From Actinomycetes bacterium (GTDB lineage: Bacteria > Actinomycetota > Acidimicrobiia > Acidimicrobiales > Acidimicrobilacustridaceae): 24,000 nucleotides of DNA. The stretch covers positions 58,909 to 82,908 of the forward strand of contig JBAXIB010000016.1 of NCBI GenBank assembly GCA_037138595.1. The letters are read 5' to 3'. The notes under the pieces were generated by a model that did no database searches, was not told the origin of the DNA, and saw only the letters and a list, made by a program, of their open reading frames with translations. This document shows positions 6,462 to 24,000 of this stretch, in pieces; the first letter of the stretch is position 1, and the number at the start of each line of letters is the position of its first letter. Position numbers and translations under genes: made by a program.

Positions 6462-6519
6462 GGCACTGCAGGTGGTGGCTGCCGACTAGGTAGAAGGTCA
6501 GGCCTGGTCGAAAATCAGG

Positions 6520-7551
6520 TCAGGTCGGGCGACGAAACGGATGGCGTACTCGCACCAATTTGGCGCGTATTCCGTGCAGCATTTCGGCCACGTTGACCTG
6601 CATTTCGATCAACGCCTCAAGCCGGGTTTCGAGGTGAGCGATCTGCGCCTGAACACCTTCGACCTCTCGCTGGATGTGATCGAGACGCGGCACCGTGTCT
6701 TGGCGGCTGACCTCGGTCGAGTCTGCAGCGATAAGTGCAGCGGCGATTGATGCAAAGTCGACGGTGCTTTCCGGAGCAAAACTTCGGTCGCCTACACGCG
6801 GCTCGCCGTTTGAACGCGCAACCACGACGTGACGGTAAAACGGAGCAAGCATTGATCGTTCGGCAAACGACAGATTGTACAACGTGTCATAACTGTTACT
6901 TAACGGCGATAAAGCGGGTCTGGCCTCAAGTTGAAAACGAAGCAGCATCATCACGAGCCAGTCCCATAAGTGCCCGTCACCGATCGTCTCAACCTGCCAG
7001 CCAACGTCTCGAAAAAGCTCAGTGGTCGCGGCAAGATCAGGTAATCCATTGGCGCGGTGTTCATCAAGCTGCGGCTGTTCGGTCCCCAGCGTCAGCAACG
7101 CATAGGTCCGCACTAATTCTTCGACCCCGGCAACTCCGGGAGTATCAAACGGAGCTGCAATGATCACCAGATCTCGCGAAACTCGCTGCAGTTCGGCCAA
7201 GAACGCCGGACGTCCGGCCGGAGGAACATGTTCGAGCACGTCACTACTAACGACCGCGTCGAAACTATCGTCAGCAAATGGCAACCGGGTGCCATCAGCC
7301 TGCGCAACGACCGCGCCTGCAAGCCGTTCAGTGACCACCGTGATGTCGATGCCGATCACCATGAGTTCGCCATCAAACGTATGGAGATGACCCGCACTAT
7401 CACCGACGTCGAGGACACGAATCGGTCCCGGGCCGAGGGAGCTCCGCAAGGCTCGAACAATCGCTCCGTAGCGGCCGTAACGGTCGAAGGAAGTCCATGC
7501 CATCGATGGGAACTCAATTCCGGCTTGCTCGGATCGCACTAATTCGCTCAC
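6520..7551 (-). CDS. Class I SAM-dependent methyltransferase with a C-terminal heptad-like helix
   Basis: IRVLDVGDSAGHL (motif I), DDSFDAVVSSDVLEHVPPAGRPAFLAELQRVSRDLVIIAAPF. The C-terminal ~45 aa (LDHIQREVEGVQAQIAHLETRLEALIEMQVNVAEMLHGIRAKL) look coiled-coil-like. The tracked start is GTG 7551; ATG 7503 (MAWTSFD) is an alternative. Confidence 0.75.
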   Translation of the reverse strand: MSELVRSEQAGIEFPSMAWTSFDRYGRYGAIVRALRSSLGPGPIRVLDVGDSAGHLHTFDGELMVIGIDITVVTERLAGAVVAQADGTRLPFADDSFDAVVSSDVLEHVPPAGRPAFLAELQRVSRDLVIIAAPFDTPGVAGVEELVRTYALLTLGTEQPQLDEHRANGLPDLAATTELFRDVGWQVETIGDGHLWDWLVMMLLRFQLEARPALSPLSNSYDTLYNLSFAERSMLAPFYRHVVVARSNGEPRVGDRSFAPESTVDFASIAAALIAADSTEVSRQDTVPRLDHIQREVEGVQAQIAHLETRLEALIEMQVNVAEMLHGIRAKLVRVRHPFRRPT

Positions 7552-7639: not shown

Positions 7640-9799
7640 TCACAGGTAAAATCGCTCAACAATGATGGCTACGGCTATGACGTTCAACACGCCCATTGCC
7701 GATGCAACGGTGGCCAATGGCACGAGTGGACTCAACCGAGGAATCAATCGGCGAAGCGCCAAGGTTGGCAAGACGAGAACGACCGGCACCATCATCAAGC
7801 CATAGCGCCCCTGCACAAATGAAAGGTCCCCGCCGTGTGTCCACCAGGTATACATCAGCACGTATAACTCCCCCAGTGCCGCGGCAACCATCAGTAGGCA
7901 AATGAACGTCGCCAACACCATGTCCTGTTGGACGAGATCTACGGCGCGGCCTCGCGCTCGCCACCATGTCCGCAGGTCCCATGCGAACGTGAAAACCCAA
8001 GCTGCGACTAACGCGGAACCTACGACGACTGCTACCAGGATCACTTTCGTAATGACGGGTGGATAGGGCGTGTTGATCCAGCCGAAATTCCCCCAGAACT
8101 GATCGATCCAATTCATCCGAATCGCACGAAATGAATCGGCATGCAAAACATGCAAAAAGTCGCTGAGGCCATAGGAACCAGGGCTGGGCTCACCTTGGAA
8201 TCCCACTCCCGCATATCCGTACATGGTTGACATGCCCAGCCATAATCCGTAGGTCACGACGACACCAGCGAGGCCACTGAGTGCTTCCCACCACCACGCT
8301 GCGGGTCGACATCCGCGCCAGCGACCAATGAGCCATGCGATGACGATCGCCGGCGCAAATGCCAAGCCCAGCGGTTTAGCCAACAGACCGATGCCAAACG
8401 CGCACCCGGCGGCGGCCAGCACCCAGCGAGACCGGTCGCGCGCCAACAACGACACCGCGAAATAGGCGCAGGCGGCTCCTGCGGCTATGGCCAAGGCATC
8501 GTTATTCACGATTGCCGTTTGTTGACTAAGCATTGGCTGCAATGCCACAGCAGCTCCAACCAACAACGCAGCCGATTCGCGCCCTGGAAACAACAACCGT
8601 CCAAGCCGAACCGAGAAATAAACCGCGATAGCGCCGAGCATGACGCTCCAAAGGCGCATCGACCCAATGCGAATATCGATGCCGCCTGGAGTCACCGCAT
8701 AGATCAGAGCTGGTACCGCGTAATACGCCGGGGAATAACCAGCAGCCGCTCCGTTTCCGTTCGAGTGATCACTCGTTGCGGCTGAATCCAGACGAGAACG
8801 GCCCGCCCGGACCGACACAATGTCGTAGTCGGCGCGATCACTTCGCGCGACGTCGCTTTGATGAAAGATCTCTGCTGCGGCGCGAAGTTGCTCGCTATAG
8901 ATATCAGCGGATCCAGCTGGCACCCCGCGCTTGGGGATTGCGTGTTCAACGGCAAGAAACTGTGCGTACGCCACATGAGCGCCCTCGTCGACCCCCAACG
9001 TCGGTGGGATGATCGCCGACCACAGCAGGGCCTTCACCACGACGAACGCTAAGAGTACTGCTATGCCGCGTCGGCGCGGCACAAGCGCGACTCCGGCGAG
9101 CAGCAAGATTGCGCCGACAGCAAGAAAAAGAACGAACCATTCGTCGCGCCAGAATGGCCCGTATTTACTGATGCGATGGAGCGCAGTGCCGATTTGATTC
9201 GCGGCGATCCCTTCGCCGCCGTATTCGGCCCTGATTTCAACCGCGAGCAACGACGCCTGTCCATCGGTTCGCTGTGCGCTCGGCTCAGATGCAGTCGGGG
9301 TCGCACCAAACATGGTCAATTGGTGTTCCGAATCAGCCGAAAGCGAGATCCGGAGGCGATAGGTCTGGCCGTCAGATTCCGAGCGCGGCGAAAACGTTGC
9401 CACCGACATCAACGACGCGTCCCGCAACTGCGACCATGGAATCGTCGCTACGGCAACGGGCGTACCGTCCTCACTTTCAAGGCGGGCGATAACGGTTCCT
9501 CGACCTGATTCGCCGTAAGTGCCGAACCTGACTGAGACCTGAGAAAGTCCAGCCGCATTCGCTGTGAATTGCTGTTCGATGCCTTGGCCAGGATCAAACG
9601 GAAGCACTGGCTGTTGACCAATGAGTGACGCATGTTCGGAACGCTCCGCTTGATAGCTTCCAGCCGGTCGAACGAGCACGGCGGCGACGACGAGCACTGC
9701 TCCGCCGAATATCAGGCCAGCCCAGCGAAACCGTTTGGTAATTGATGGTTGAACATCAGGTTGTCCGGTAGCCACAGCAGCGGACTCGACGGCGACCAC
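7640..9799 (-). CDS. Large polytopic membrane protein, a DUF2142/GT-C-like glycosyltransferase with an extra N-terminal exported domain
   Basis: There are more than 12 hydrophobic segments. The first large outside loop carries GVDEGAHVAYAQFL, and FVQGRYGLM lies near the C-terminus. Both signatures recur in the 17349..18896 paralogue (PDEGAHIV, LQGRYLLP). The N-terminus has one TM segment followed by a ~170-aa non-hydrophobic domain. The GTG start directly abuts the TAA stop of the upstream DUF2304 gene. Confidence 0.65.
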   Translation of the reverse strand: MVAVESAAVATGQPDVQPSITKRFRWAGLIFGGAVLVVAAVLVRPAGSYQAERSEHASLIGQQPVLPFDPGQGIEQQFTANAAGLSQVSVRFGTYGESGRGTVIARLESEDGTPVAVATIPWSQLRDASLMSVATFSPRSESDGQTYRLRISLSADSEHQLTMFGATPTASEPSAQRTDGQASLLAVEIRAEYGGEGIAANQIGTALHRISKYGPFWRDEWFVLFLAVGAILLLAGVALVPRRRGIAVLLAFVVVKALLWSAIIPPTLGVDEGAHVAYAQFLAVEHAIPKRGVPAGSADIYSEQLRAAAEIFHQSDVARSDRADYDIVSVRAGRSRLDSAATSDHSNGNGAAAGYSPAYYAVPALIYAVTPGGIDIRIGSMRLWSVMLGAIAVYFSVRLGRLLFPGRESAALLVGAAVALQPMLSQQTAIVNNDALAIAAGAACAYFAVSLLARDRSRWVLAAAGCAFGIGLLAKPLGLAFAPAIVIAWLIGRWRGCRPAAWWWEALSGLAGVVVTYGLWLGMSTMYGYAGVGFQGEPSPGSYGLSDFLHVLHADSFRAIRMNWIDQFWGNFGWINTPYPPVITKVILVAVVVGSALVAAWVFTFAWDLRTWWRARGRAVDLVQQDMVLATFICLLMVAAALGELYVLMYTWWTHGGDLSFVQGRYGLMMVPVVLVLPTLALRRLIPRLSPLVPLATVASAMGVLNVIAVAIIVERFYL

Positions 9800-11123: not shown

Positions 11124-12194
11124 TTGATCGTGGCTCCCCTGCAACCATCCCACACCGCCGGCGCGTCAGGTGACGCGTTCGCCGATCGGGTTTCAGTCGT
11201 GATCGTGGCGTTTGGCGCCGATCCGTGGCTTGTACCGTCCGTCGATGCCGTTCTTTCGTCAGCGGGTGTCACGACCGATGTCATTGTCGTTGACAACGGT
11301 GGAACCGGTGGCCTGACCACCGATCTTGCCAAGCGAGATCGGGTGACGATCATTGGTTCTGGCGACAACATCGGATTCGCGGCCGGGTGCAACCTCGGCG
11401 TGGCCCATTCAAAGTCTCCGCTGGTGGCGCTGATTAATCCTGACGCGCGTGTCGAACCACGAGCATTGGCCGAATTGGCCCACGCGCTCGCGAACCCCGA
11501 GGTTGGGATAGCAACGGCAAGTGTTCGCCTCGCCGAGAACCCCGAATTGTTGAACTCAGCCGGTAATGCCATTCATTTTCTGGGGATCAGTTGGTCAGGA
11601 AATTTCAAGGCCGACGCGACTGACCACAACACCGAGGTACCTGTTACCGCAGCAAGTGGAGCGGCGATGATGATGCGACGGTCTACCTGGATCGACCTTG
11701 GTGGCCTCACCAATGAATTTTTCGCCTACTACGAAGACGCCGAACTCAGCCTGCGATGCTGGCAGCGCGGATTATCCGTGATCTTTGTTCCCACTGCGGT
11801 TGTCGTGCACCGTTATGAGTTTTCACGAAACCCGCTCAAGTACCAGCTCCTTGAACGCAATCGACTGATCTTGGTACTCACGACGTTTGGGACCCGGCAC
11901 CTTGTGCTCATGGCTCCTGCGTTCCTCGCGATTGAACTGGCGATTGTGGCAACCGCTGCGGCGCAAGGATGGCTGGGACCCAAGTTGAAGGGATATGTGT
12001 GGCTCGCTCGCAACGTGCGATGGATTCGCCAGAGACGACGCTCAGTCCAAAACGCGCGCACGGTGTCGGACTCGAACATGGCTCCATTATTTGCAAGCAA
12101 ACTTCAGCCCGAAAATCTGCCGCCACCAAAAGCACTCCAACCATTTGATCGGCTCCTTGTTCGCTATTGGGCGGTCGCTCGTCGGTTCCTGTAA
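11124..12194 (+). CDS. GT2 family glycosyltransferase (WbbL-like rhamnosyltransferase type)
   Basis: VSVVIVAFGADPW, VIVVDNGGTGG, GDNIGFAAGCNLG, ALINPDARVEP, FFAYYEDAELSLRCWQRGL. The tracked start is TTG at 11124, so the exact start is uncertain. Confidence 0.85.
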   Translation: MIVAPLQPSHTAGASGDAFADRVSVVIVAFGADPWLVPSVDAVLSSAGVTTDVIVVDNGGTGGLTTDLAKRDRVTIIGSGDNIGFAAGCNLGVAHSKSPLVALINPDARVEPRALAELAHALANPEVGIATASVRLAENPELLNSAGNAIHFLGISWSGNFKADATDHNTEVPVTAASGAAMMMRRSTWIDLGGLTNEFFAYYEDAELSLRCWQRGLSVIFVPTAVVVHRYEFSRNPLKYQLLERNRLILVLTTFGTRHLVLMAPAFLAIELAIVATAAAQGWLGPKLKGYVWLARNVRWIRQRRRSVQNARTVSDSNMAPLFASKLQPENLPPPKALQPFDRLLVRYWAVARRFL

Positions 12195-12213
12195 TCAGCC
12201 TAAAGTTCGACCG

Positions 12214-12942
12214 ATGATTAAGACTTCGAAGAAGGCGACTCAACGACGTGCGCTCGAGCTTCTTCAGGCGTCGGCCGATGCCGACGCCGAGGGATACGTT
12301 CATCTCCAGACAATCCCCTACCGTGGCCACCACCTTCTGACCGCTGCAGTTCTTGACGTGACGAACCCCGGTGATCGCGTGTTCGAAGGCGGTGTCTCAT
12401 CGGGGTATTTCGCGTCCGTGTTGGTGCGGGCCGGACTTCGTGTCGACGGCCATGAGCTGGATCCGAATGTCGCAGTACGCGCCCGCGAGGTTTGCGACAA
12501 CGTGTATGTCGGCGATCTCACTATCTTTGATCCTGAAGCCCTTGACGGCATGTACGACGTGCTGTTGTTCGGCGACACGCTTGAGCACCTGCCCGATCCA
12601 GCCCAAGTGCTCCGAGGGTTGAAAACAAAGTTGAGGCCGGGCGGAAGCCTGATCGTCAGCGTCCCCAATATTGCCAACTGGGCGATCCGTTTGTCGCTGC
12701 TCGCTGGCCGATTCAATTACACCGATCGAGGCATCCTGGATAGAACTCACCTGCGATTCTTCACCGTGCATACGTTGGCCGAAATGCTTGGCGACGCAGG
12801 ATTCGAAGTGACTTCACTCGTCGGATCAATTCCTGTTCCCGGCGTGAATGGCCAAAGAATGGGTCGACTCACGCATCGCATCGGCAATGTGCGGCCATCG
12901 ATTGCCGCTTACGGTCTCATCGTGACGGCCAAAGCTCGCTGA
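12214..12942 (+). CDS. Class I SAM-dependent methyltransferase
   Basis: DRVFEGGVSSGYFA (motif I-like), YDVLLFGDTLEHLPDP, LRPGGSLIVSVPNIANWAIRLSLLAGRFNYTDRGILDRTHLRFFT. I chose the start at ATG 12214 (MIKTSKK), 20 nt after the upstream GT2 stop. The tracked ORF extension from 11995 lies inside that GT2. Confidence 0.8.
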   Translation: MIKTSKKATQRRALELLQASADADAEGYVHLQTIPYRGHHLLTAAVLDVTNPGDRVFEGGVSSGYFASVLVRAGLRVDGHELDPNVAVRAREVCDNVYVGDLTIFDPEALDGMYDVLLFGDTLEHLPDPAQVLRGLKTKLRPGGSLIVSVPNIANWAIRLSLLAGRFNYTDRGILDRTHLRFFTVHTLAEMLGDAGFEVTSLVGSIPVPGVNGQRMGRLTHRIGNVRPSIAAYGLIVTAKAR

Positions 12943-12954
12943 CGCACTAAGCGG

Positions 12955-14277
12955 TCAGACCTCCATTGGGATGTCATTAATCGCATCAAGGAGATTGTCA
13001 GTCGTGGGTGCTGCCCCGCTGGCGATTGCTCGCCGAAGCAGAAACGCCATGGCCACCAGCGCAACCAGCGCCGCGCCCAAAAATGCAAGTTCAACGGTGA
13101 ACAATGGATCGTTCCCGAACCCAACGATCGCCATCATCGCCACGACGCCCGCACCCCAACCAAACGCCACGTGAGCCGCCAAGCCCAGTGCGATGAGCGC
13201 CTGAGCCAACGTCATCGCGACGATAAAACATGCCGTCGCCGCGGCCAACATGCCGACCGTTTGCCGACTGACCACGAACTCAGGTCCGAAAATGAGTTTG
13301 ATGAGTGATGGTCCAATCACGAGCACGACTACGACTCCGCCAGCGCCAATCGCGGTAACGGCGAGCACCATACGGCGAATCCCTGCGTTGAATTCGTCAA
13401 ATTTTCGCGCGACGGCCAATGCCGCCAGTGCGGGCAGCAACACCGCTTGCAACGCCTGAAACAAAAACAACGGGACGCGAGCGACCAAGAGTGCGGCCGT
13501 GAAGATGCCGACTTCGGCCGCTTGGTCTGGTCCAGCAAGGAACTGAAGCACTACCGGTGACGCATTAATCAAGGTCTGGGCCAGCAACGCTGCCGCCAAA
13601 AGCTTCCCAAGGCCAGCGGCAAGTTCACGCCAGGCAACATCCGGTTGCGCCAACGAATGATCGCGCCGCCACCAAAGGGCTGGAACTGCTACCACAAGCG
13701 GCGCTAGCCCTAATGCGAGTCCAATTGGCCCCGCGGTACGCACGCCTGAGGCGAGTAAGACAATGCAACATGCCAAGCGCACGAGTGCTTCACCGCCGAG
13801 AAACGTCCCGTATCGACCGAACCGCCCCAATCCGGACAAGATGCCCTCGGTCCAATTGGCGATGAGATATCCAGTCGCTCCCGCCAGCAGGCCGACAACG
13901 AGGAGCCCCTGACCACTGAACAGTCGGTCGGTCAGTGCCGGCGCCGCAATTGTGATTGCGATGGAAAGCACCGCGACCAACATGATGCCGAGCGCTAACG
14001 ACCGGCGGATGATCGAAGTTCCACCCAGGCCAGCGACACGCCTTCCAACTAGTCGGCGGCTGACTTCTTGTTCGAACGGCAGGAAGACTCCGCCGATCAA
14101 GAAAACCAGCGACCACAGAACCGCCAAACTGCCGTACTCACTTGGCCCCAGCACCCGAGCTGAAATGACCAAGTAGCAATAAGACGCGATTCCGGTAACC
14201 GCCAAACCTATGCCAACGGGGATCGTTCCGGTCGGAAGCGAGATGCGACCAGACCGCTCAGATGGAGACATAGCCAT
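12955..14277 (-). CDS. Wzx/MOP-superfamily polysaccharide or lipid-linked-sugar flippase
   Basis: The 440-aa protein is almost entirely hydrophobic (roughly 12-14 TM segments). It has the N-terminal pattern ...ARVLGPSEYGSLAVLWSLVFL... common in Polysacc_synt/RfbX-type proteins. A GGGAGAG Shine-Dalgarno-like element lies about 8 nt upstream of the ATG. Confidence 0.6.
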   Translation of the reverse strand: MAMSPSERSGRISLPTGTIPVGIGLAVTGIASYCYLVISARVLGPSEYGSLAVLWSLVFLIGGVFLPFEQEVSRRLVGRRVAGLGGTSIIRRSLALGIMLVAVLSIAITIAAPALTDRLFSGQGLLVVGLLAGATGYLIANWTEGILSGLGRFGRYGTFLGGEALVRLACCIVLLASGVRTAGPIGLALGLAPLVVAVPALWWRRDHSLAQPDVAWRELAAGLGKLLAAALLAQTLINASPVVLQFLAGPDQAAEVGIFTAALLVARVPLFLFQALQAVLLPALAALAVARKFDEFNAGIRRMVLAVTAIGAGGVVVVLVIGPSLIKLIFGPEFVVSRQTVGMLAAATACFIVAMTLAQALIALGLAAHVAFGWGAGVVAMMAIVGFGNDPLFTVELAFLGAALVALVAMAFLLRRAIASGAAPTTDNLLDAINDIPMEV

Positions 14278-15411: not shown

Positions 15412-16254
15412 TCAGGTTGCCAGGATCCTTTTCACGAGCCGACCAAGCGGTTCGTGAAAATCGGAGGCCAGCGGGAGTCCACCAAGTCGAAGCGCAGCGT
15501 TGTCCAATACCGAATTCGCGGGTCGCGGCGCAGGACGCGCTGGTTTCAGGTCAGCAGTCGACACGGGATTAACTCGAGCAGCGTCCAAGCCGGCGGCTTC
15601 CAGCACCGCCTGGGCAAACTCGTACCAACTGACTGCACCCTGGTTGGTCACATGGAACAAACCCGCTCGCCGTTCGACAACAAGGCGGCGGACCACCCGT
15701 GCGAGATCATCAGCAAAGGTCGGATGCCCACGTTGGTCGCTCACAAACGACAATGAGTCGTGTTCATTTGCGAGCCGCAATATGGTTTTGACCATGTTCG
15801 CTCCGTGAAAACCGCTCACCCACGATGTGCGCACAATGGTGTCGGAAGTTCCGAGTTCGCGTTCGCCGCCCAGTTTTGAGCGTCCATACACCGAGGTCGG
15901 ATTCGTGTCATCCCATTCGGTATACGGCGCAGTCTTGGTGCCATCAAAGACGTAATCGGTCGACAGGTGACACACCCATGCTCCGGCAAAGCGAGCCGCA
16001 TCGGCAATGTGTCGAACGGCTAGTGCGTTTATGGCCCATGCCTTATCGATTTCAGATTCACACAGGTCAACGGCAGTAAAGGCTGCGCTATTGACGATCA
16101 CGTCGGGTTGTTTCGATGCAACAAATCCTACAACAGCATCTCGATCGGTTACGTCGAGTTCGCTATGGCCTGCGGCAATTACATCATGATCAGAAAAAAC
16201 GTCGACCAACTCGCGACCGACCTGGCCACCTGCTCCGGTAATAAGAATACGCAT
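15412..16254 (-). CDS. rmlD: dTDP-4-dehydrorhamnose reductase
   Basis: MRILITGAGGQVGREL, SAAFTAVD, STDYVFDG, PTSVYGRSKLGGE, RTSWV. I chose the start at ATG 16254. The tracked extension to 16464 overlaps rmlB. Confidence 0.92.
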   Translation of the reverse strand: MRILITGAGGQVGRELVDVFSDHDVIAAGHSELDVTDRDAVVGFVASKQPDVIVNSAAFTAVDLCESEIDKAWAINALAVRHIADAARFAGAWVCHLSTDYVFDGTKTAPYTEWDDTNPTSVYGRSKLGGERELGTSDTIVRTSWVSGFHGANMVKTILRLANEHDSLSFVSDQRGHPTFADDLARVVRRLVVERRAGLFHVTNQGAVSWYEFAQAVLEAAGLDAARVNPVSTADLKPARPAPRPANSVLDNAALRLGGLPLASDFHEPLGRLVKRILAT

Positions 16255-16294
16255 CAGGAGTGCCTCGTCATAGTGGTCATTCGGGCGGTGCTCA

Positions 16295-17251
16295 TCAATT
16301 TCCCCTGAGCGGTTCCCACCACCAACGATTCTCCCGATACCAAGCAACCGTTTCTTCGAGTGCTTCGTCGAGTGAACGCTGTCGATGCCATCCCAACTCA
16401 GTGATCTTTGCGATGTCAACCGAATAGCGCCGATCGTGTCCAAGCCGATCAGGGACGTAATCAATCATCTCATCACCAACACCCAATAGGCCCAAAATTT
16501 TGTCGACGAGCACACGATTGGGCGTTTCATTGCCAGCACCAATGTTGTAAATCTCGCCAGGGGTGCCTCTCTCGAGCACTAAGTGCACGGCGGCGCAGTG
16601 ATCATCGACATACAGCCAATCTCGCTCGTTAAGTCCGTCGCCATAAAGCGGAATGTGTCGACCGTCGAGCACGTTGGTCGTAAACAACGGGATCGCCTTT
16701 TCCGGATATTGGTATGGCCCGAAGTTATTGGTGCATCGGGTGACCATGACCGGCGTGCCGTAGGTTTGGTAATACGACAGGGCGATCAGGTCGCTTCCTG
16801 CCTTTGACGCCGAGTAAGGCGAACGAGGTTCGAGTGGGTCGGACTCACGAGACGAACCAACTTCAACCGAGCCGTACACTTCATCGGTCCCGATATGAAT
16901 GACGCGGTCAATCTCGAGTGCGCGGGCCGTGTCAACCACAACGTTGGTTCCAAAACAATTGGCATTCACGAAATCGTCTGGTCCCAATATCGATCGATCG
17001 ACATGACTCTCGGCCGCAAAGTGCACGACCGCATCATGACCAGCCATGGATTGCTCAAGTGTGGCGCGGTCGGTGATGTTTCCTTTCACGAATCGGAACC
17101 GAGGGCTGTCATCCACATCGCGCAACGTCGAAAGGTTGCCGGCATAGGTCAATGCGTCAAATACCGTGACTTCGTCATCGCTATGAGCCAACACGTGTCG
17201 CACGTAATTCGAACCGATGAAGCCGGCAGCGCCGGTAACAAAAAGCTTCAT
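16295..17251 (-). CDS. rmlB: dTDP-glucose 4,6-dehydratase
   Basis: MKLFVTGAAGFIGSNYV, VHFAAESHVDRS, TDEVYG, SPYSASKAGSD, NNFGPYQYPEK, GDGLNERDWLYVDDH. The start is ATG 17251, or ATG 17257 two codons upstream. Confidence 0.95.
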   Translation of the reverse strand: MKLFVTGAAGFIGSNYVRHVLAHSDDEVTVFDALTYAGNLSTLRDVDDSPRFRFVKGNITDRATLEQSMAGHDAVVHFAAESHVDRSILGPDDFVNANCFGTNVVVDTARALEIDRVIHIGTDEVYGSVEVGSSRESDPLEPRSPYSASKAGSDLIALSYYQTYGTPVMVTRCTNNFGPYQYPEKAIPLFTTNVLDGRHIPLYGDGLNERDWLYVDDHCAAVHLVLERGTPGEIYNIGAGNETPNRVLVDKILGLLGVGDEMIDYVPDRLGHDRRYSVDIAKITELGWHRQRSLDEALEETVAWYRENRWWWEPLRGN

Positions 17252-17348
17252 AACCATTATCTTCGCAGACGACGCCACACGACAGCGAAAATGCTCAATA
17301 GTCATTCCATGGCCACCGAAACCATCGGAGTACCATCAAGCGATCCCC

Positions 17349-18896
17349 ATGCTTGATCTGGAAGTACCTCCTCAACCCCAGCTTCGGCTCCGTCGGTTCG
17401 CTAGCAGTTTTTTGTTGATCCTGGCTTGCGTTGCCTCTTGGTCACTAGCCATGCCGCTTTTCAGCGCACCAGATGAAGGCGCACACATCGTCCGGGCCTA
17501 CGCCGTTGTCCATGGCGAACAGTCGCACCCCGACTTGGCTACCGGCGGATCGGCATTCTACGTTCCTGCAGAGATCGTCCACGGCGGGAACAACGACGAC
17601 CCATGCTTCGCCGGCAACCCCAATCAGCCTGCCTCATGCATGGACCTTCAATCTGACGGCCCTCAACACTCGGTTGACTCATCAGCCATCGGGTACCCAC
17701 CGTTTTACTATTTCATTGTCGGTTGGCCCACCTTGTTGACCTCGGGGCTCAAGTCGCTGTATCTGATCCGTCTCGTCGGCGCATTGGTGGTTGCATTGCT
17801 CATCGCACTAGGACTTGAAAGCGTTGTCCGATTGCGACGCCCAGCGCCACTGCTGCTTGCGGCCACCGTCGCCATTACGCCTGCCGTGTTGTATTTCGGT
17901 GCGATGGCTACGCCTTCGGGCATCACTATCGCCGCCGCGTTCGCGGTATGGACTGCCGGCATGTTCTTGGCACGTTCGAAAAAGCTTGACCGCATCGGAT
18001 GGGCTGCAGCGCGATTTGGATTTCCGTTGTGCCTCTTTCTTTTATTGCGTCGCGATGCAGTTTTTTGGGCCGTTCTCGTCATCGCGACCATCGCAGTGCT
18101 CATCCCTCGTGATCGATGGCGACTGCTACTTCGCGCTCGACCATTGTGGGCCTGGGCCGTTGCCTGCGCCGTGTGCGCCGGGATACAGCTACTCATAGCG
18201 GGAGCCGAAACGGGAAGTTCAGTAGCCGGCCAAGTTGGCTCCACTGGTGGAGACTTTTGGCGTGCAGTAGCTGACGCGTCGTGGTTAGCCCAACAGATTC
18301 AAGGGGGAATTCTCGGCTGGCTCGACGTGAATTTACCCTTCCCCGTGCTCTTCATCTTTGTAGTGAGCACCGGGTTCTTGGTCATCAGTGCAATTGGATT
18401 TTCTGGGCGAAGGGTCAGCCTTGCGCTGCTCGGCATGACGTTGGCAATCGTTACGATCCCCCTGCTGCTCGGAACAGTCCGCTGGCCATACTTGCAAGGT
18501 CGGTACCTGTTGCCGTTCACTGTTGGCCTGCCGCTTGTTGCTGGGCTAGGCCTCTCCGAAGCACTCAAGGGTCGGTTGGCGCCAAGACGTTTTCTTTGGC
18601 TACTCATGCCGCTAGTGGCCTTCGCTCAAATCGCCGCGTTCGCCCAAGCCATGCGTCGCTATGTCTCGGGCGCGACTGCCGAATGGTGGATTTTTTCGCG
18701 ACCGCAATGGAGTCCGCCGGCAGCAAGTCCGACGGTGTTCGTGCTTTTTTACATCGTCGCTATCGCTGCGCTTTTTGGGTGGCTGTATTACTTGGCCATT
18801 CGCACGCCGACTGCAGATCACGAATCGGCGACAGAAGACGAATCGACCGCATCAGAACGGCAACGCGCCGCGACGGTGGGACTGCCTATTCAGTAG
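17349..18896 (+). CDS. DUF2142-family polytopic membrane protein (GT-C-like glycosyltransferase candidate)
   Basis: After TM1 the sequence reads MPLFSAPDEGAHIVRAYAVVHGE, then YPPFYYFIVGWP, then more than 10 further hydrophobic segments, and WPYLQGRYLLPF near the C-terminus. I chose the start at ATG 17349 (MLDLEV). The tracked extension from 17217 overlaps rmlB on the other strand. Confidence 0.65.
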   Translation: MLDLEVPPQPQLRLRRFASSFLLILACVASWSLAMPLFSAPDEGAHIVRAYAVVHGEQSHPDLATGGSAFYVPAEIVHGGNNDDPCFAGNPNQPASCMDLQSDGPQHSVDSSAIGYPPFYYFIVGWPTLLTSGLKSLYLIRLVGALVVALLIALGLESVVRLRRPAPLLLAATVAITPAVLYFGAMATPSGITIAAAFAVWTAGMFLARSKKLDRIGWAAARFGFPLCLFLLLRRDAVFWAVLVIATIAVLIPRDRWRLLLRARPLWAWAVACAVCAGIQLLIAGAETGSSVAGQVGSTGGDFWRAVADASWLAQQIQGGILGWLDVNLPFPVLFIFVVSTGFLVISAIGFSGRRVSLALLGMTLAIVTIPLLLGTVRWPYLQGRYLLPFTVGLPLVAGLGLSEALKGRLAPRRFLWLLMPLVAFAQIAAFAQAMRRYVSGATAEWWIFSRPQWSPPAASPTVFVLFYIVAIAALFGWLYYLAIRTPTADHESATEDESTASERQRAATVGLPIQ

Positions 18897-18897
18897 G

Positions 18898-19464
18898 TCA
18901 GGGCCGCAACTGATAATGCGGTTGCCACTGGGGATCAAGATTGTCCCGGCCCGGGTTTTGCTGATCGCGTTGAGACAAAATCGGGTCGGTGAGTCCCCAA
19001 TCGGCAACGACGGCAGGGTCATCCCACTTCACGCCAAGTTCATCGGCCGGGTTGTAATAACTATCGACGAGATAGGTGATCGTCATGTCCGTCAGCGCGG
19101 CAAACCCATGAGCGACTCCCGGCGGGATGAAGATACCTCGGTGACTGTGGCTACCATCAGGCTGCCGCCCAAGATCGATAGATAACGTTGCACGGTCCGT
19201 GGGTGAACCCGTTCGCAAGTCATGGAGCACGACTCGGGCCGTCCCATAGGGGACATACCAAAAATCGGCTTGATGGAGATGATAATGAAGGCCGACAATC
19301 GCGCCGGCTTGACGGTCTCCGCGATTGCCCTGCACCATCTCTCGCCCTTGCGGAAACCACTCGCGCCGGTAGGTCTCGACGAAGTAACCGCGCTCGTCGC
19401 CGTGGATCGAGGGATCAGCAATAAAAACGCCGGCAATGATGTCGGATTCGGTAATGGATTCCAT
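18898..19464 (-). CDS. rmlC: dTDP-4-dehydrorhamnose 3,5-epimerase
   Basis: HGDERGYFVETYR, GLHYH..QADFWYVPYGTARVVLHDLR, GIFIPPGVAHGFAALTD, YLVDSYYNPADELGVKWDDP. Confidence 0.92.
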   Translation of the reverse strand: MESITESDIIAGVFIADPSIHGDERGYFVETYRREWFPQGREMVQGNRGDRQAGAIVGLHYHLHQADFWYVPYGTARVVLHDLRTGSPTDRATLSIDLGRQPDGSHSHRGIFIPPGVAHGFAALTDMTITYLVDSYYNPADELGVKWDDPAVVADWGLTDPILSQRDQQNPGRDNLDPQWQPHYQLRP

Positions 19465-19497
19465 GGGTATCGAAGCTAGCCGAAGCTCACTGAGTCG

Positions 19498-20604
19498 CTA
19501 TTCGAGATCAATGCTGCAGTGATCGCCAACCATGAGCCGAGTCGCACGTGGCCGAACATGTGAGCGGCCAACCTCAACAAATTTCCCAATGAGTGAATCA
19601 GTCAGACGCGGTACTGAGTTGATTTGGCTGTGTTCAAGCACCACTGAGTGTTCGATTTCCGAATCAATAATCTCGCAGTCATTTGCAACTGCAGTAAAGG
19701 GCCCGATGTAACTGTTCACCACCCGGGTATTTGATCCAATGATCGCCGGACCGCGCACCATCGAACCGATAATGATTGCGCCTTGTTCAATGACCACTCG
19801 GCCATCAATCTGAGAGTCGGCATCGACCGAACCATCGTTACGAGGCTCCAGTGTGTCGAGCACTCGACGGTTGCTCTCGAGCAATGGATCTTTCTTTCCC
19901 GTATCGAGCCACCAGCCTTCGACAACTTCGTGACGAACTCGGTCGCCCCGGTCGATGAGCCACTGAATTGCATCAGTAATTTCGAGTTCACCACGCGGCG
20001 ACGGTTGGATCGCTGACACAGCATCAAAAATGGTTGAGGTAAACAGGTAGACGCCAACAAGCGCGAGGTCCGAAGGTGGGTGCTCGGGTTTTTCGACCAG
20101 TCGCACAACCTCACCGTTGACGTCGACTTCGGCCACTCCAAATCGTTGCGGGTCGGGAACATGACACAGCAGTATCTGCGCCGATGGTGGTGCTTCTGCT
20201 CCAGCGAGCGTCGGCTCAGCACTTCGCTGTTGATCTTGCACAAATTCGTCGATGAAGCCGACTAATCCTTGCTGGAGCATGTTGTCGCCCAGATACATCA
20301 CGAAATCGTCACCATCTAGGAAATCGCTCGCGATGAGCACGCAATGAGCAAGACCCAGGGGCGCATCTTGCGGGATATAGGTCACGTCCACTCCCCACGC
20401 GGAACCGTCACCCACTGCCGCCATGATCTCAGCTTGGGTATCACCCACGATGATTCCGATTTCGGTGATACCGGCTTCAACCATGTCCTCGATCCCATAA
20501 AACAGAATCGGCTTGTTGGCCACTGGGACCAATTGCTTGGCGCTGGTATGGGTAATGGGCCGAAGCCGAGTTCCGGCACCGCCTGACAAAATGAGACCTT
20601 TCAT
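19498..20604 (-). CDS. rmlA: Glucose-1-phosphate thymidylyltransferase, long form with a C-terminal hexapeptide-repeat (left-handed beta-helix) domain
   Basis: MKGLILSGGAGTRLRPITHTSAKQLVPVANKPIL, GLAHCV, YLGDN, EITD. The C-terminal third has repeating I/V-G-x patterns (VIEQGAIIIGSMVRGPAIIGSNTRVVNSYIGPFTAV). I chose the start at ATG 20604; the tracked extension reaches 20709. Confidence 0.92.
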   Translation of the reverse strand: MKGLILSGGAGTRLRPITHTSAKQLVPVANKPILFYGIEDMVEAGITEIGIIVGDTQAEIMAAVGDGSAWGVDVTYIPQDAPLGLAHCVLIASDFLDGDDFVMYLGDNMLQQGLVGFIDEFVQDQQRSAEPTLAGAEAPPSAQILLCHVPDPQRFGVAEVDVNGEVVRLVEKPEHPPSDLALVGVYLFTSTIFDAVSAIQPSPRGELEITDAIQWLIDRGDRVRHEVVEGWWLDTGKKDPLLESNRRVLDTLEPRNDGSVDADSQIDGRVVIEQGAIIIGSMVRGPAIIGSNTRVVNSYIGPFTAVANDCEIIDSEIEHSVVLEHSQINSVPRLTDSLIGKFVEVGRSHVRPRATRLMVGDHCSIDLE

Positions 20605-20625: not shown

Positions 20626-20655
20626 GCCGATGCCATCGCCTCCTAGTGCATCGGC
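20626..20655. promoter_or_regulatory. 8-bp inverted repeat in the rmlA / GH25 divergent intergenic region (candidate operator)
   Basis: GCCGATGC (20626..20633) and GCATCGGC (20648..20655) are separated by 14 nt. An inner palindrome CGATGcCATCG lies at 20628..20638. The motif CGATG/CATCG therefore occurs three times within 30 nt, inside the 77-bp divergent spacer. Confidence 0.2.
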
Positions 20656-20681
20656 TGGCCCGTTCGATTGGACCCGATGTA

Positions 20682-22226
20682 ATGGAAATACCTTCCCCCC
20701 GGCATTCAATTATCAACCGCTTGGGTCCACGATTGTTCGCCCCAGCGGCGGTGGCGATCATCGTCTTTTCTGCCGCCTTTGGGACGTTGCCATCCGCTTC
20801 CGCCGCCAATGCTTCAACTCAGCCGTTGTCTCCCTCATCGGTCGTTGCCAACGATGTCGCAAGCTCCGGCTTCTTGATAGGCCCCGATGTTTCTGGCTGG
20901 CAACATACCGGCGGCAACATTGATTGGGCCGCAGTCGCTGCATCCGGAGTCTCGTTTACGTTTGTCAAAGCAACCGAAGGTTTAAACGGCGGGACCATCC
21001 CGTATACCAACCCAAATTTCGCCCGCGACTTTGCTGGTGCGGGCAACAACGGGCTATATCGCGGTGCGTATCACTTTGCGCGACCTGCACTGCCGTTGTC
21101 GACGGCGGTCGATCAAGCTCGCCACTTCGTTTCCGTCACCGGAGCCATGAACAATGCGCTTGACCTACCTCCAGTGCTCGATCTCGAAGTCACGGGAGAT
21201 CTCGCTCCCACTGACCTGATCGCGTGGACAACAACTTGGCTCACGGCAGTTCAAAATCTCACAGGTCGACAGCCGATGATCTACTCAGGACCGTCGTTTT
21301 GGTACAGCGCGATGGCCAACACCACCGCACTCAATACGTATCCGTTGTGGATCGCCCGCTGGAACAACAACCCCGATCCACTTCCCTTACCGGGCGGATG
21401 GACCGCTTGGAGTTTTTGGCAATACACCTCGACTGGAGCAATCCCTGGAATCGTCGGCAACGTCGACATCAGTCGGTATTGCTGCAGTCTCGCTCGCCTT
21501 GCTGCGTTAAGCGGCAGTCCATCTGGTCGACCCCACATCTATCTTCGCAATTCGACCACGACCGGTGTAGCAAATACCGACTACGTGTTCTCTGCATCGG
21601 CCGGTGGCACCCTCTTGATGTGTGATTGGAATGGCGATGGCACCGACACGCCCGGTGTTTTTGTCAACGGCACCTGGTACCTCACGAACTCGACCACCGG
21701 CGGCATCCCTGAAATTGATTTTGCCTTTGGTGATCCCGGCGATATTCCCGTTTGTGGCGATTGGAATGGCACCGGCAGCGACCGCCCAGGGGTAGTTCGC
21801 CGAGGAGCTGCGTTGACCTGGTTTCTAAGCAATACCTTGGGTTCAGGTTTCGCGGATCGATCGTTCAGTTACGGCGATCGATTCGATGCTCCTCTCGTAG
21901 GTGATTGGAACGGCGATGGCACCGATACTCCGGCCGTCAAACGTGGGGCAATGTGGTATCTCTCCAACACCTCGGGTGTACCGAGGGCCGACCAATCGTT
22001 TGCCTATGGAAATCCCAGCGACATCGGAGTCATCGGCGAATGGACACGCACCGGCCACGACTCGGTAGGGGTAAAACGAGGAGCAGTGTGGTATCTCACC
22101 AATACCCTCGGAGCTCCATTTGCCGACATAACGATGACCTATGGCGAACCTAGTGACATTCCACTCACTGGCCGGTGGCGCGCCGGCGCTACGAGTTCGG
22201 TTGGCATCTCACGCCCGACGCTGTAG
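20682..22226 (+). CDS. Secreted GH25 muramidase (lysozyme) with a C-terminal array of five FG-GAP-like repeats
   Basis: Signal peptide: MEIPSPRHSIINRLGPRLFAPAAVAIIVFSAAFGTLPSASA/AN. GH25 motifs: GPDVSGWQ, FTFVKATEG, YHFA, PPVLDLEV, WIARW, WSFWQYTSTG, GNVDISRY. Five repeats follow (see the repeat feature). Confidence 0.9.
   Translation: MEIPSPRHSIINRLGPRLFAPAAVAIIVFSAAFGTLPSASAANASTQPLSPSSVVANDVASSGFLIGPDVSGWQHTGGNIDWAAVAASGVSFTFVKATEGLNGGTIPYTNPNFARDFAGAGNNGLYRGAYHFARPALPLSTAVDQARHFVSVTGAMNNALDLPPVLDLEVTGDLAPTDLIAWTTTWLTAVQNLTGRQPMIYSGPSFWYSAMANTTALNTYPLWIARWNNNPDPLPLPGGWTAWSFWQYTSTGAIPGIVGNVDISRYCCSLARLAALSGSPSGRPHIYLRNSTTTGVANTDYVFSASAGGTLLMCDWNGDGTDTPGVFVNGTWYLTNSTTGGIPEIDFAFGDPGDIPVCGDWNGTGSDRPGVVRRGAALTWFLSNTLGSGFADRSFSYGDRFDAPLVGDWNGDGTDTPAVKRGAMWYLSNTSGVPRADQSFAYGNPSDIGVIGEWTRTGHDSVGVKRGAVWYLTNTLGAPFADITMTYGEPSDIPLTGRWRAGATSSVGISRPTL
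21537..22223 (+). repeat. Coding tandem repeat: five units of ~45-48 aa (135-144 nt) with consensus WYLxN(S/T)xGxxxADxxFxYGxxxDxPxxGDWNGDGxDTPGVxRxG
   Basis: The anchor motifs fall with a 135/144/135/135 nt period: CDWNGDG at 21621..21641, GDWNGTG at 21756..21776, GDWNGDG at 21900..21920, GEWTRTG at 22035..22055 and GRWRAGA at 22170..22190. DWNGDGxD matches the DxNxDGxxD calcium-loop pattern of FG-GAP/VCBS repeats. Confidence 0.85.
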
Positions 22227-22248
22227 CGATCGGAAACGTTCTCAATCG

Positions 22249-24000
22249 TTAGCCCGCAAATTCCCGAACAATGCCAACCGTAGAACCCGCGCCAATTACC
22301 CAGCGACCAGTGATCGGTTTATCGGCGACATCGCCGAATGCGAATGAGTAATCAGCGGTGCCCTTGGTCACGCTGTTCACCAAATACCAGATGTTTCCGC
22401 GTTTGACCCCTGGGGTGTCAATGCCGTCGTTGTTCCAATCTCCGATGACTGCAACGTCAGTTGGACTTCCATAACCGAACACCAAGTCAGCTGAAATTTT
22501 TCCAATCGAATTTGCGAGGTACCAGGTTCCGCGACGCACGATCCCTGGCGTGTCGGTCCCATCGCCGTTCCAGTCGCCGACCACCGGCACATCGGCTGAA
22601 TCGCCGTAGCCAAACGCAAGTTCTGCAGTTGGACTTCCCAAGGTATTGGTCAAATACCATCTACCCGCCCGAACGATTCCCGGGGTATCAATTCGATCGC
22701 CGTTCCAGTCGCCGCAAACGGGAATATCAGAACCATTTCCGAACGCGAAGATCCGCGTTGCTGGTCCACCAGAGGTGGAATCGGTCACGTACCAGATCCC
22801 GTTCACGACTTTGGTCGGAGTCTGGGAACCATTTCCGTCGATATCACACATCAGGGTACGGCCGCCGGAAGGAACGACGAAGTGGTAACTAACGTCAGCC
22901 ACACCGCCTGTTTGAGAATTGCGCAGATACACACCGGTATAAGCAACGCACGCTCCGCGGTAGGTACTCAGATCACACAGGCTGTCGCCCTGCGTCCATG
23001 ACAACGCGGTGCGTGCATTCGCAGTCACTGGCTTCGAGGCGCTGATCGTGACGCCATATCCCGAGTCCTCGCGCAGCCAAACTCGATATTCGGTCGAACC
23101 ACTGATGAAGTTGTAATACGGAGCAGAAACCGGTGATGGCCCCCAAATCGGTATCCGCCACCCAACTGAACCCTCGGCAAGTGCGGGATCAACATAAGTG
23201 CATGTGACGGTGCCGAGTCCCGGCACCGTGCAGTTTCGGACAGTCGTGCCACCGCCGCGACTAACTGTTGGGTCGACATTCACATGCAGCGTCGTCGGAT
23301 CGTAAATCGCGTTATAGATCGTTTCGCAAACACCGCTGTTGCAACCAAACCACATACCCCATACTGAGGCTCGACGCTCAGCGTCCGTTCCCGTCGATGT
23401 ACACCATCGCGAGGCAATTGTGGTTGCCGCTTGCTGTGCCGCGGAGTCGGTGCTCATCGCTTGCGCACCGCTGAGCTTCCAACCGCCAGCCGAATCAAAT
23501 GCCCATGCACCAACGCCAGGATGCCAAAAGGCTTTCGGGTACACCGTCGACTTGGATCCAAATGCATACAGACCCGCGCTGGTGTCGTACCGAGACAAAG
23601 TCATCGGCGAAGGCGCGGCGAGACCAGATGCCCCAGTCTCGGGATAGGTCGGTGCCAACATGATCGACGCAAGCTGGTTTGTAGTGAGGCCACAAGCGGA
23701 ACCTGAACGCTGATTTGCCCAATACAGCGTGTCGTCAAGAGGGCCTTTGCCAAAGGTGTACACCGCGGCCTCAGGCACATTTAGCGAACGAGCTGCAAGC
23801 GAGCCGGTCACAGACGATTGAGTCCCCGGCACCCACGAAGTACCGCCGGTCCAATCGTCAGGTGCGACTTGGGGTGTGCTCGGCGCTGCTCCCGATGCTG
23901 TCGGCGACATACCGACCACCAGCGCGCTCAACGTCATGCATAACGCCATTGACACGACACGGGCACGCCACGTCGTAATTCGGCGGAGCGGGGAAGTCAT
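22249..24000 (-). CDS. Secreted Cys-rich protein of unknown function: a ~320-aa N-terminal region with no motif I can assign, followed by five FG-GAP-like repeats
   Basis: The 583-aa ORF has its ATG exactly at the window edge. A signal-peptide-like N-terminus (MTSPLRRITTWRARVVSMALCMTLSALVVGMSPTASG/AAPS) argues that this is the true start, but an upstream extension cannot be excluded. The C-terminal ~227 aa are collinear with the GH25 protein's C-terminus. Confidence 0.75.
   Translation of the reverse strand: MTSPLRRITTWRARVVSMALCMTLSALVVGMSPTASGAAPSTPQVAPDDWTGGTSWVPGTQSSVTGSLAARSLNVPEAAVYTFGKGPLDDTLYWANQRSGSACGLTTNQLASIMLAPTYPETGASGLAAPSPMTLSRYDTSAGLYAFGSKSTVYPKAFWHPGVGAWAFDSAGGWKLSGAQAMSTDSAAQQAATTIASRWCTSTGTDAERRASVWGMWFGCNSGVCETIYNAIYDPTTLHVNVDPTVSRGGGTTVRNCTVPGLGTVTCTYVDPALAEGSVGWRIPIWGPSPVSAPYYNFISGSTEYRVWLREDSGYGVTISASKPVTANARTALSWTQGDSLCDLSTYRGACVAYTGVYLRNSQTGGVADVSYHFVVPSGGRTLMCDIDGNGSQTPTKVVNGIWYVTDSTSGGPATRIFAFGNGSDIPVCGDWNGDRIDTPGIVRAGRWYLTNTLGSPTAELAFGYGDSADVPVVGDWNGDGTDTPGIVRRGTWYLANSIGKISADLVFGYGSPTDVAVIGDWNNDGIDTPGVKRGNIWYLVNSVTKGTADYSFAFGDVADKPITGRWVIGAGSTVGIVREFAG
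22252..22932 (-). repeat. Coding tandem repeat: five 45-aa units paralogous to 21537..22223
   Basis: The anchor motifs CDIDGNG, GDWNGDR, GDWNGDG, GDWNNDG and GRWVIGA start at residues 385, 430, 475, 520 and 565, an exact 45-aa period. The lead-in VYLRNSQTGGVADVSYHFVVPSGGRTLMCD parallels IYLRNSTTTGVANTDYVFSASAGGTLLMCD in the GH25 protein. Confidence 0.85.

Follow-up and report, generated by a model that had tools for sequence, protein, structure and literature searches.

A predicted five-bladed propeller module at the C-termini of two convergent secreted proteins of an Acidimicrobiia bacterium and its probable role in envelope targeting

A 24,000-nucleotide stretch of contig JBAXIB010000016.1 from an Acidimicrobiales bacterium, analysed here over its whole length and called the window, ends with two convergent genes, one for a secreted GH25 muramidase and one for a secreted protein of 583 amino acids (aa) that we call ORF583. 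Both proteins close with the same repeat module, and both genes stand beside a locus for a rhamnose polysaccharide. This raises the question of what the module is and what it does on two different proteins. We conclude that it is one occupant of an exchangeable envelope-targeting slot. It is very confidently predicted to fold as a five-bladed β-propeller with four strands per blade, and its sequence places it at the fringe of the FG-GAP/VCBS family. The reading that we favour, and that we consider rather probable, is that the propeller acts as a non-catalytic, lectin-like module which holds secreted enzymes on the envelope through multivalent glycan binding.

The argument starts from the following features, given in window coordinates:
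20646..22226, forward strand: gene of the secreted GH25 muramidase with a C-terminal propeller, a 526-aa open reading frame (ORF) from the GTG at 20646
21537..22223, forward strand: propeller module of the GH25 protein, residues 298-526, from the AlphaFold2 model, unit dissection and Foldseek
22227..22248, no strand: gap of 22 bp between the convergent stop codons, read from the sequence
22249..24000, reverse strand: ORF583, secreted 583-aa protein, whose ATG is formed by the last three bases of the window
22264..22932, reverse strand: propeller module of ORF583, residues 357-579, from BLASTP and unit dissection
22981..23886, reverse strand: N-terminal catalytic-type domain of ORF583, from homologue comparison

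The GH25 assignment is based on PF01183, which matches residues 81-269 with E 2.4e-46 and 158.8 bits against a cut-off of 27 bits and covers profile positions 2-180 of 180. The muramidase sequence also contains the motifs GPDVSGWQ and LDLE, which we take to be typical of GH25. Its N-terminus is signal-peptide-like (...AAFGTLPSASA/ANAS), and an alternative ATG is found at 20682. ORF583 likewise begins with a signal-peptide-like N-terminus, followed by a Cys-rich domain of ~300 aa and the C-terminal propeller that it has in common with the GH25 protein. The first-pass annotation of this DNA had described two ORFs converging 22 bp apart; both ORFs are present at that spacing, and a terminator scan of the gap found no terminator-like hairpin. 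The stretch 21537..22932 runs exactly from the I of IYLRNS in the GH25 protein to the V of VYLRNS in ORF583.

The two modules are paralogues. BLASTP aligns residues 281-523 of the GH25 protein with residues 340-579 of ORF583, collinearly and with a single 3-residue gap, at 125/243 identities (51%, E 6e-77), and tblastn of the window against itself gives 54% identity over 226 aa. That the last ~230 aa are collinear paralogues, as had been claimed on first inspection, is thus confirmed at 51-54% identity. Splitting at the WY(L/V) strands yields five units of ~45 aa in each protein, with the YLRNS lead-in as unit 1. The earlier description of a lead-in plus five repeats recognised the repeat correctly and was off by one in the count, which is five including the lead-in. 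Five units are also found in the consensus of 58 sequences (alignment A1, containing the GH25 module, 56 database relatives and the paralogous module of ORF583) and in that of 77 relatives.

The repeat follows the pattern WYLxN-x4-G-x-AD-xx-F-x-YG-xxx-D-x-P-xx-GDWNGDGxDTPGVxR, in which DWNGDG conforms to the general Ca2+-binding motif Dx[DN]xDG (PMC3123361). A perfect loop of this kind (DWNGDG or DWNNDG) occurs in two of the five blades of each module and is variant or lost in the remaining ones. In the GH25 module it is intact in blades 1 and 3, with blades 4 and 5 degenerate; in the ORF583 module it is intact in blades 3 and 4, with blade 5 degenerate. The terminal units, GRWRAGA and GRWVIGA, had correctly been called degenerate: the loop of the last blade is lost in both modules, and the same loss is seen in the consensus of the 58 and of the 77 sequences.

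The AlphaFold2 model of the GH25-protein module shows 20 strands in five groups of four, with a mean predicted local distance difference test score (pLDDT) of 97.1 and a predicted template modelling score (pTM) of 0.92. The blade count from a predicted structure, which the first-pass annotation had proposed, is therefore five, and its remark that five units are atypical compared with the seven-bladed integrin type agrees with both the sequence and the model. Foldseek against the PDB returns as best matches ITFG2 of the KICSTOR complex (E 6.1e-5) and PVL (2bwm, E 1.4e-4), followed by AAL2 (4tqm, E 3.7e-4), integrin alphaIIb (E 2.4e-3) and a TcB/TcC toxin propeller. The best of these are seven-bladed FG-GAP/VCBS propellers. 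The FG-GAP/VCBS-like character suspected earlier is in this way recovered by fold, and relatives of the module touch Pfam FG-GAP_3, 13 of 58 at E<=0.01 and 5 of 77 at E<=1e-4, some of them passing the threshold. For the window proteins themselves, Pfam and NCBIfam scans give nothing above threshold for the module, there is no NCBIfam model, and ORF583 has no match to FG-GAP_3 or FG-GAP (PF01839) in the Pfam scan. Caspase-6 appears among the PDB matches of the modules at E~1, which we regard as noise.

The module is abundant. A HMMER scan of 1.84 billion cluster representatives (clusters at 50% identity) finds 16,458 at E<=1e-3, 9,718 at E<=1e-10 and 1,993 at E<=1e-30, and a scan of one genome per species finds at least 433 module loci. 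The loci closest to the window modules lie in a metagenome-assembled genome (MAG) of the Microthrixaceae (67% and 60% identity), which points to Acidimicrobiia as the probable source of the window, and the module is also present in Georgenia, with several copies per genome, in Arthrobacter, Agromyces and Actinotignum. It can stand N- or C-terminally. Among 77 representatives, which we use as a less biased sample, the partner domains are Amidase_2 (7), CAP (6), SpoIID, NlpC/P60, M23, CHAP, YkuD and PG_binding_1 (2 each), and GH25, VanY and polysaccharide deacetylase (1 each). When only catalytic domains are counted, roughly one representative in four has a domain active on peptidoglycan; this class is the largest but not the only one. 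A word-indexed search gives CAP as the commonest partner, then GGACT, GH25, CHAP, M23, M15_4, Rpf-type transglycosylase and SLT_3; Excalibur is also among the fusion partners. The first-pass annotation had seen the module on two different N-terminal domains, one of them a peptidoglycan hydrolase. This extends to a mobile, non-catalytic module on many secreted enzymes, among which peptidoglycan-active ones are the most frequent.

What the module does on ORF583 is best approached through the domain in front of it. The N-terminal ~300 aa of ORF583 have no Pfam or NCBIfam match and 66 homologues. In their AlphaFold2 model (pLDDT 88.7), a helical lobe precedes a beta lobe. The best Foldseek matches are lysozyme-like, but none is significant (phi29 gp13 at E 0.04, MltE at E 0.52, MltF at E 3.5, and a GH19 chitinase), and UniRef names two of the homologues 'transglycosylase-like'. 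The domain is possibly lysozyme-like, and a wall-glycan-cleaving activity is plausible. It also has six Cys that are conserved and two motifs, PETGA...APSPMTLSRYD and WxPW, that hardly vary.

The homologues of this domain end in three SLH domains, a PLL-type propeller, classic FG-GAP repeats, or nothing. Three SLH domains follow the ORF583-type domain in P0127 (E 6.6e-41) and in P0138. P0156 carries a PLL-type propeller that matches Photorhabdus PLL2 (6rfz_A) with E 1.9e-95, and P0175 has classic GDxDGDG FG-GAP/VCBS repeats. The amidase of locus L077 bears a PLL propeller as well, matching 8q82_A with E 4.5e-39. Because homologues carry SLH or a PLL lectin in the same position, the C-terminus is an exchangeable glycan-binding anchor slot. 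Anchorage by SLH domains to pyruvylated secondary cell-wall polymers is textbook knowledge. The analogy to SLH proteins, drawn at first from the letters only, thereby gains a concrete basis, with SLH or a PLL propeller found at the same C-terminal position on homologues of ORF583.

The exchange takes place within a conserved genomic island of Acidimicrobiia. It runs from SIR2 and ThiF/rhodanese through a relative of the polytopic membrane protein at 12955-14277 of the window, an ORF583-type enzyme, an optional GH25 gene and the rml genes to an Amidase_2 protein with Rv3811_N. The anchors are distributed over the loci as follows:
Window, L001, L020 and L076: five-bladed module on every island enzyme with a C-terminal module; rml adjacent
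L077 and L079: PLL propeller on the ORF583-type enzyme and on the amidase; rml adjacent
L078: SLH on both enzymes; no rml within 10 kb
L080 and L081: SLH on the ORF583-type enzyme, classic FG-GAP_3 repeats on the amidase; rmlABCD between the two genes

In the first group, the five-bladed module is carried by GH25 in all four loci, by the ORF583 type in the window, L001 and L076, and by Amidase_2 in L001 and L020. On the contigs of L001, L020, L077 and L079 many genes are split by frameshifts, seen as tblastn hits that break into neighbouring frames and as called proteins with out-of-frame tails (e.g. P0121 and P0123). Long-read assembly errors are the probable cause, so that domain calls from these four need care. 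Enzymes of one genome tend toward one anchor type, as would follow from an anchor that recognises a feature peculiar to the envelope of its organism.

Taken together, wall targeting by the module is likely. In the mechanism that we propose, Ca2+ bound in the Dx[DN]xDG loops would stabilise the propeller, several equivalent shallow sites would be presented around its ring, and multivalent binding of low affinity to a repeating wall glycan would then keep the enzyme on the envelope.

A number of observations weigh against this reading and have to be set beside it. The tie to known propellers is distant at the level of both fold and sequence. Template modelling (TM) scores to solved propellers are just 0.40-0.50 (TMq), low because a five-bladed ring is compared with seven-bladed ones. 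On the GH25 protein, Pfam FG-GAP_3 (PF13517) reaches 13.1 bits against a cut-off of 26.9 bits (E 0.15), and neither the single module sequences nor the A1 profile matches a PDB chain (E<=1 for the profile). The comparison with FG-GAP/VCBS and wall-binding families that the first-pass annotation had suggested therefore leaves FG-GAP_3 below its cut-off, and no established wall-binding family (SLH, LysM, SH3b, CW_binding_1, PG_binding_1, CW_7 or LGFP) is found by Pfam in either protein at E<=1. The module is also fused to wall-unrelated domains, namely phytase, sulfatase, S8 (subtilase), M10 (matrixin) and GSDH. It further occurs in the archaeon Methanoperedens, in Anaerolineae, Blastocatellia and Saccharibacteria, and in a Desulfuromonadales MAG. 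Since an archaeon and diderm phyla carry it, 'cell-wall anchor' is not the universal role of the module. In L080 and L081, SLH and classic FG-GAP anchors are mixed at one locus, and the anchor is therefore not strictly uniform per genome. Finally, tblastn against 50,697 phage records gives no match and thus no phage lysin with the module; together with the lack of a significant fold match in BFVD, this leads us to reject an origin from phage lysins.

The Methanoperedens case concerns a single Candidatus Methanoperedens MAG with three module copies (L010, L014 and L015), in which P0055 is fused to a cohesin domain. These copies could reflect horizontal transfer, bin contamination or a non-murein ligand.

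If the propeller holds enzymes on the envelope, the next question is which ligand it reads. The first-pass annotation had proposed the glycopolymer made next door, and the rest of the window is indeed a wall-polysaccharide locus, with Wzt, Wzm, a double GT4 and three GT2 glycosyltransferases, three methyltransferases, PMT_2, DUF2142 and RmlD/B/C/A. The direct proximity of both genes to a rhamnose-polysaccharide locus, as first described, is thereby confirmed. Its features mentioned in the text are:
7640-9799, reverse strand: PMT_2 membrane protein, GT-C-like (Pfam)
12955-14277, reverse strand: polytopic membrane protein of 440 aa, without Pfam or NCBIfam match
15412..20604, reverse strand: deoxythymidine diphosphate (dTDP)-rhamnose genes rmlD, rmlB, rmlC and rmlA (Pfam)
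17217-18896, forward strand: DUF2142 membrane protein, GT-C-like, which interrupts the rml run

The presence of PMT_2 and DUF2142 implies extracytoplasmic glycosylation steps. Three S-adenosylmethionine-dependent methyltransferase genes lie at 5460-7551 and 11995-12942, which suggests that the polysaccharide is O-methylated or terminally methyl-capped. In some O-antigens exported by Wzm/Wzt, chain length is set by terminal methylation. Wzt of the window has a C-terminal carbohydrate-binding domain (PF14524).

In its full form the proposal is that the propeller reads the rhamnose-containing, possibly O-methylated polysaccharide of the adjacent rml/wzm-wzt/glycosyltransferase/methyltransferase locus and serves as an SLH-like tether. 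We regard this as possible but doubtful. The placement of rmlABCD, Wzm/Wzt, glycosyltransferases and three methyltransferases directly beside both genes speaks for it, as do the PLL-type propellers in the same slot in two related genomes, whose relatives bind L-fucose and O-methylated sugars (PMC6943638). Two representatives that pair the module with PG_binding_1 hint at a ligand other than peptidoglycan. The survey of co-occurrence with rml and wzm-wzt loci, suggested on first inspection and carried out by tblastn with window proteins against 75 genome loci from 47 assemblies, does show an association. rmlA, rmlC or rmlD lies within 10 kb of a module gene in nine of the 47 assemblies, from Acidimicrobiia and Micrococcales and with varied partner domains, and Wzm/Wzt adjoins a module gene in two more (L029 and L074). 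In five Georgenia genomes (L047, L063, L073, L037 and L039) and a Promicromonosporaceae MAG (L003), three to four module genes are interleaved with rmlC, rmlD and rmlA; the partners of these module genes are CAP, Excalibur, GGACT, SpoIID and Amidase_2. Interleaving of nucleotide-sugar genes with genes for secreted proteins is unusual. We take nine of 47 as a real association, because by a rough estimate less than 1% of random 20-kb windows would hold a given rml gene. A further observation is that Georgenia sp. 1P01AC has several module loci within ~110 kb (3.29-3.40 Mb).

Against a rhamnose-containing ligand stands, first, that these counts are phylogenetically non-independent: five of the nine assemblies are Georgenia, and the association reduces to perhaps three to five independent lineages. 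In genomes with many copies, such as G. satyanarayanai, most module genes are away from rml. The presence of the module in Methanoperedens, Blastocatellia and Saccharibacteria also does not suit such a ligand. In Acidimicrobiia, rml adjacency follows the enzyme island and not the module. The same enzymes are flanked by rml whether they carry the module, PLL, or, in L080 and L081, SLH and classic FG-GAP repeats around rmlABCD, and therefore rml adjacency alone cannot identify the ligand of the module. Anchorage to the glycopolymer made next door is accordingly not established. We also considered 'concerted anchor switching' as proof of a polymer-specific ligand. Six loci fit, but L080 and L081 mix their anchors beside rmlABCD, and we rejected it as proof.

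The broadest version of the idea would make the module a major family, so far overlooked, that anchors proteins to secondary cell-wall polymers in Actinomycetota and Chloroflexota. Functionally equivalent to SLH, it would read a (methyl)rhamnose polysaccharide, and each organism would fit all of its wall hydrolases with a polymer-matched anchor, be it the module, PLL or SLH. We consider this bold version unlikely.

Unlikely, too, is a ligand in the peptidoglycan itself, that is, binding of the propeller to N-acetylglucosamine (GlcNAc) or N-acetylmuramic acid (MurNAc) of the glycan strand independently of the neighbouring polysaccharide. The closest solved lectins by fold, the fungal PVL and AAL2, are specific for terminal GlcNAc, and tachylectin-2, a five-bladed member of the same supercluster, binds GlcNAc and N-acetylgalactosamine (GalNAc) (PMC8023676). 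The quarter of representatives with a peptidoglycan-active partner is in line with this. With fold matches as remote as TM 0.40-0.50, however, specificity is not transferable from these lectins to the module. A peptidoglycan ligand is at odds with the fusions to CAP, phytase, sulfatase and proteases and with occurrence in an archaeon without murein, and a PG_binding_1 domain in the same protein would be redundant.

Binding of a protein in place of a glycan appears improbable to us. The propeller would then be a scaffold for protein-protein contact or self-recognition, which docks to an S-layer or envelope protein or auto-regulates its enzyme. FG-GAP propellers of integrins and of ITFG2, the top Foldseek match, do bind proteins, a bacterial self-recognition role has been proposed for VCBS proteins (PMC9218822), and the wide partner range would also suit a generic docking module. 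Yet in orthologous enzymes the module is swapped with two well-characterised glycan binders, SLH and the PLL lectins, it is enriched beside polysaccharide loci, and no conserved partner gene is seen across the loci.

The suggestion that the inverted coding repeat drives gene conversion or inversion between both genes can practically be dismissed, since the arms, although ~690 nt long and 22 bp apart, are 55% identical (382/690, codon-aligned), share no exact run longer than 14 nt, and each encode a module that resembles its orthologue in another genome more than the module beside it. A repeat search of the arms returns just short patches, 59 nt at 71% and 32 nt at 88%. The three-quarters identity estimated by eye earlier applies to the best 60-nt window (75%) and not to the arms overall. 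Orthologues of the modules in other genomes are 61-68% identical, compared with 54% between the window paralogues; the GH25 module is 68% identical to its counterpart in L020 and the ORF583 module 66% to that in L001. As the orthologues are closer than the paralogues and the convergent pair is also kept in L001 and L076, we read the pair as an old duplication without concerted evolution.

How does the module compare with known propellers, if it is a lectin-like anchor as we favour? The VCBS supercluster includes PVL, integrins and the five-bladed lectin tachylectin-2 (PMC8023676), and VCBS-like propellers are typically tied to carbohydrate recognition (PMC9218822). The module resembles members of the VCBS/FG-GAP supercluster in its predicted four-stranded blades of ~45 aa, its Asp-rich Dx[DN]xDG loop, its secretion and its mostly prokaryotic occurrence, and its FxYG ... 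GDWNGDGxD parallels the FG ... DxNxDG of FG-GAP. It differs from FG-GAP/VCBS propellers in having five blades rather than seven, from the integrin type in a loop that is one residue shorter (DWNGDGxD against DxNxDGxxD), and from FG-GAP in the strand after the loop, which reads TPGVxR rather than GAP; also unlike FG-GAP, the window proteins stay under the Pfam thresholds and match no PDB chain by sequence. With tachylectin-2 (1TL2) it has in common five blades, a length of ~235 aa, the supercluster and a multivalent lectin architecture. The Asp-rich loop that the module carries is absent from tachylectin-like propellers (PMC8023676). 1TL2 is outside the top 50 Foldseek matches, and a PDB search with the A1 profile gives no chain at E<=1.

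A bioinformatic paper has probably named this module family already, without characterising it. The 'VCBS actinolectins' are actinobacterial, uncharacterised proteins with a signal sequence and a propeller that stands alone or after a TIM barrel, and they connect the VCBS core with the tachylectins, which have five blades (PMC8023676). Matched by description, the window proteins agree with them in their signal-peptide-like N-termini, in the GH25 barrel followed by a propeller, and in closest relatives from Microthrixaceae and Acidimicrobiia. Unlike the actinolectins as described, the module family extends beyond Actinomycetota and has far more partner domains.

Among anchors, SLH (PF00395) is a functional parallel, as a non-covalent anchor of secreted wall enzymes that takes the place of the module at the C-terminus of ORF583-domain homologues and of the Amidase_2 next to them; the module is unrelated to it in fold and sequence, and the ligand of SLH is known. 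The Photorhabdus propellers PLL, PLL2, PLL3 and PHL (PF26607, seven-bladed) stand in the same slot on the orthologous enzymes of L077 and L079, and lectins of this family bind L-fucose and O-methylated sugars, including a methylated glucose-rhamnose disaccharide (PMC6943638). Unlike the module, PLL has the repeat DGRLEVF...WxxWQ...WSGW and is a separate repeat family; the window modules match no PLL or PHL chain even at E<=10. Membership of the module in PLL had been suggested by the label 'Beta-prop_PLL' of PF26607 on neighbouring genes. We rejected it, as PF26607 is the other repeat family that replaces the module in the sister genomes. The choline-binding repeats of GH25 lysins such as Cpl-1 and LytC likewise target a catalytic domain through repeats that recognise a wall glycopolymer, with no sequence or fold match here. 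The receptor-binding protein Gp45 of S. aureus phage phi11 is reportedly a five-bladed propeller that recognises a wall glycopolymer, and we found no sequence or fold match of the module to it.

The fold superfamily, five-bladed members such as tachylectin-2 and modular wall-binding anchors on autolysins are already known. In the literature that we searched on FG-GAP and five-bladed propellers, none is described as a wall-binding domain of peptidoglycan hydrolases, nor are the recurrence of the module with such hydrolases, the SLH/PLL interchange at the island or the association with rhamnose loci. Cell-wall-binding modules set where and on which cells autolysins act, and they are reused in diagnostics, surface display and engineered lysins. 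We know of almost no characterised wall-binding modules for Actinomycetota outside the mycolata, for Acidimicrobiia or for Chloroflexota. The present module, with 9,718 clusters at E<=1e-10, has no dedicated Pfam or NCBIfam model and no solved structure. If it were a true lectin-type anchor with an identified ligand, thousands of secreted proteins would gain an annotation, and the poorly known wall glycopolymers of these phyla would gain a handle. The series of anchors at one syntenic island (module, PLL, SLH and FG-GAP) forms a natural experiment on anchor type versus wall chemistry.

Some smaller observations concern the surroundings of the pair. rmlA is divergent from the GH25 gene, and the longest ORFs of the two, to 20709 for rmlA and from 20646 for GH25, overlap head to head. 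A start of rmlA near 20604 is likelier, because in the 403-aa ORF the NTP_transferase domain does not start before residue 37. With this start the divergent intergenic region measures only ~40-77 bp, and no sigma-70-like promoter was detected in it. The membrane protein at 12955-14277, a possible flippase- or polymerase-like component, is also kept in the polysaccharide loci of L001, L020 and L076 (52-56% identity), and a paralogue (34-43%) lies between ThiF and the ORF583-type gene in L076, L078, L080 and L081. Lastly, close homologues of PLL, PHL and PLL2 occur on Amidase_2 and on the ORF583-type enzyme next to rml in two Acidimicrobiia MAG contigs (L077:11079-14085 and L079:10001-14546), and PLL-type lectins as anchors of actinobacterial wall hydrolases may be a subject in their own right.

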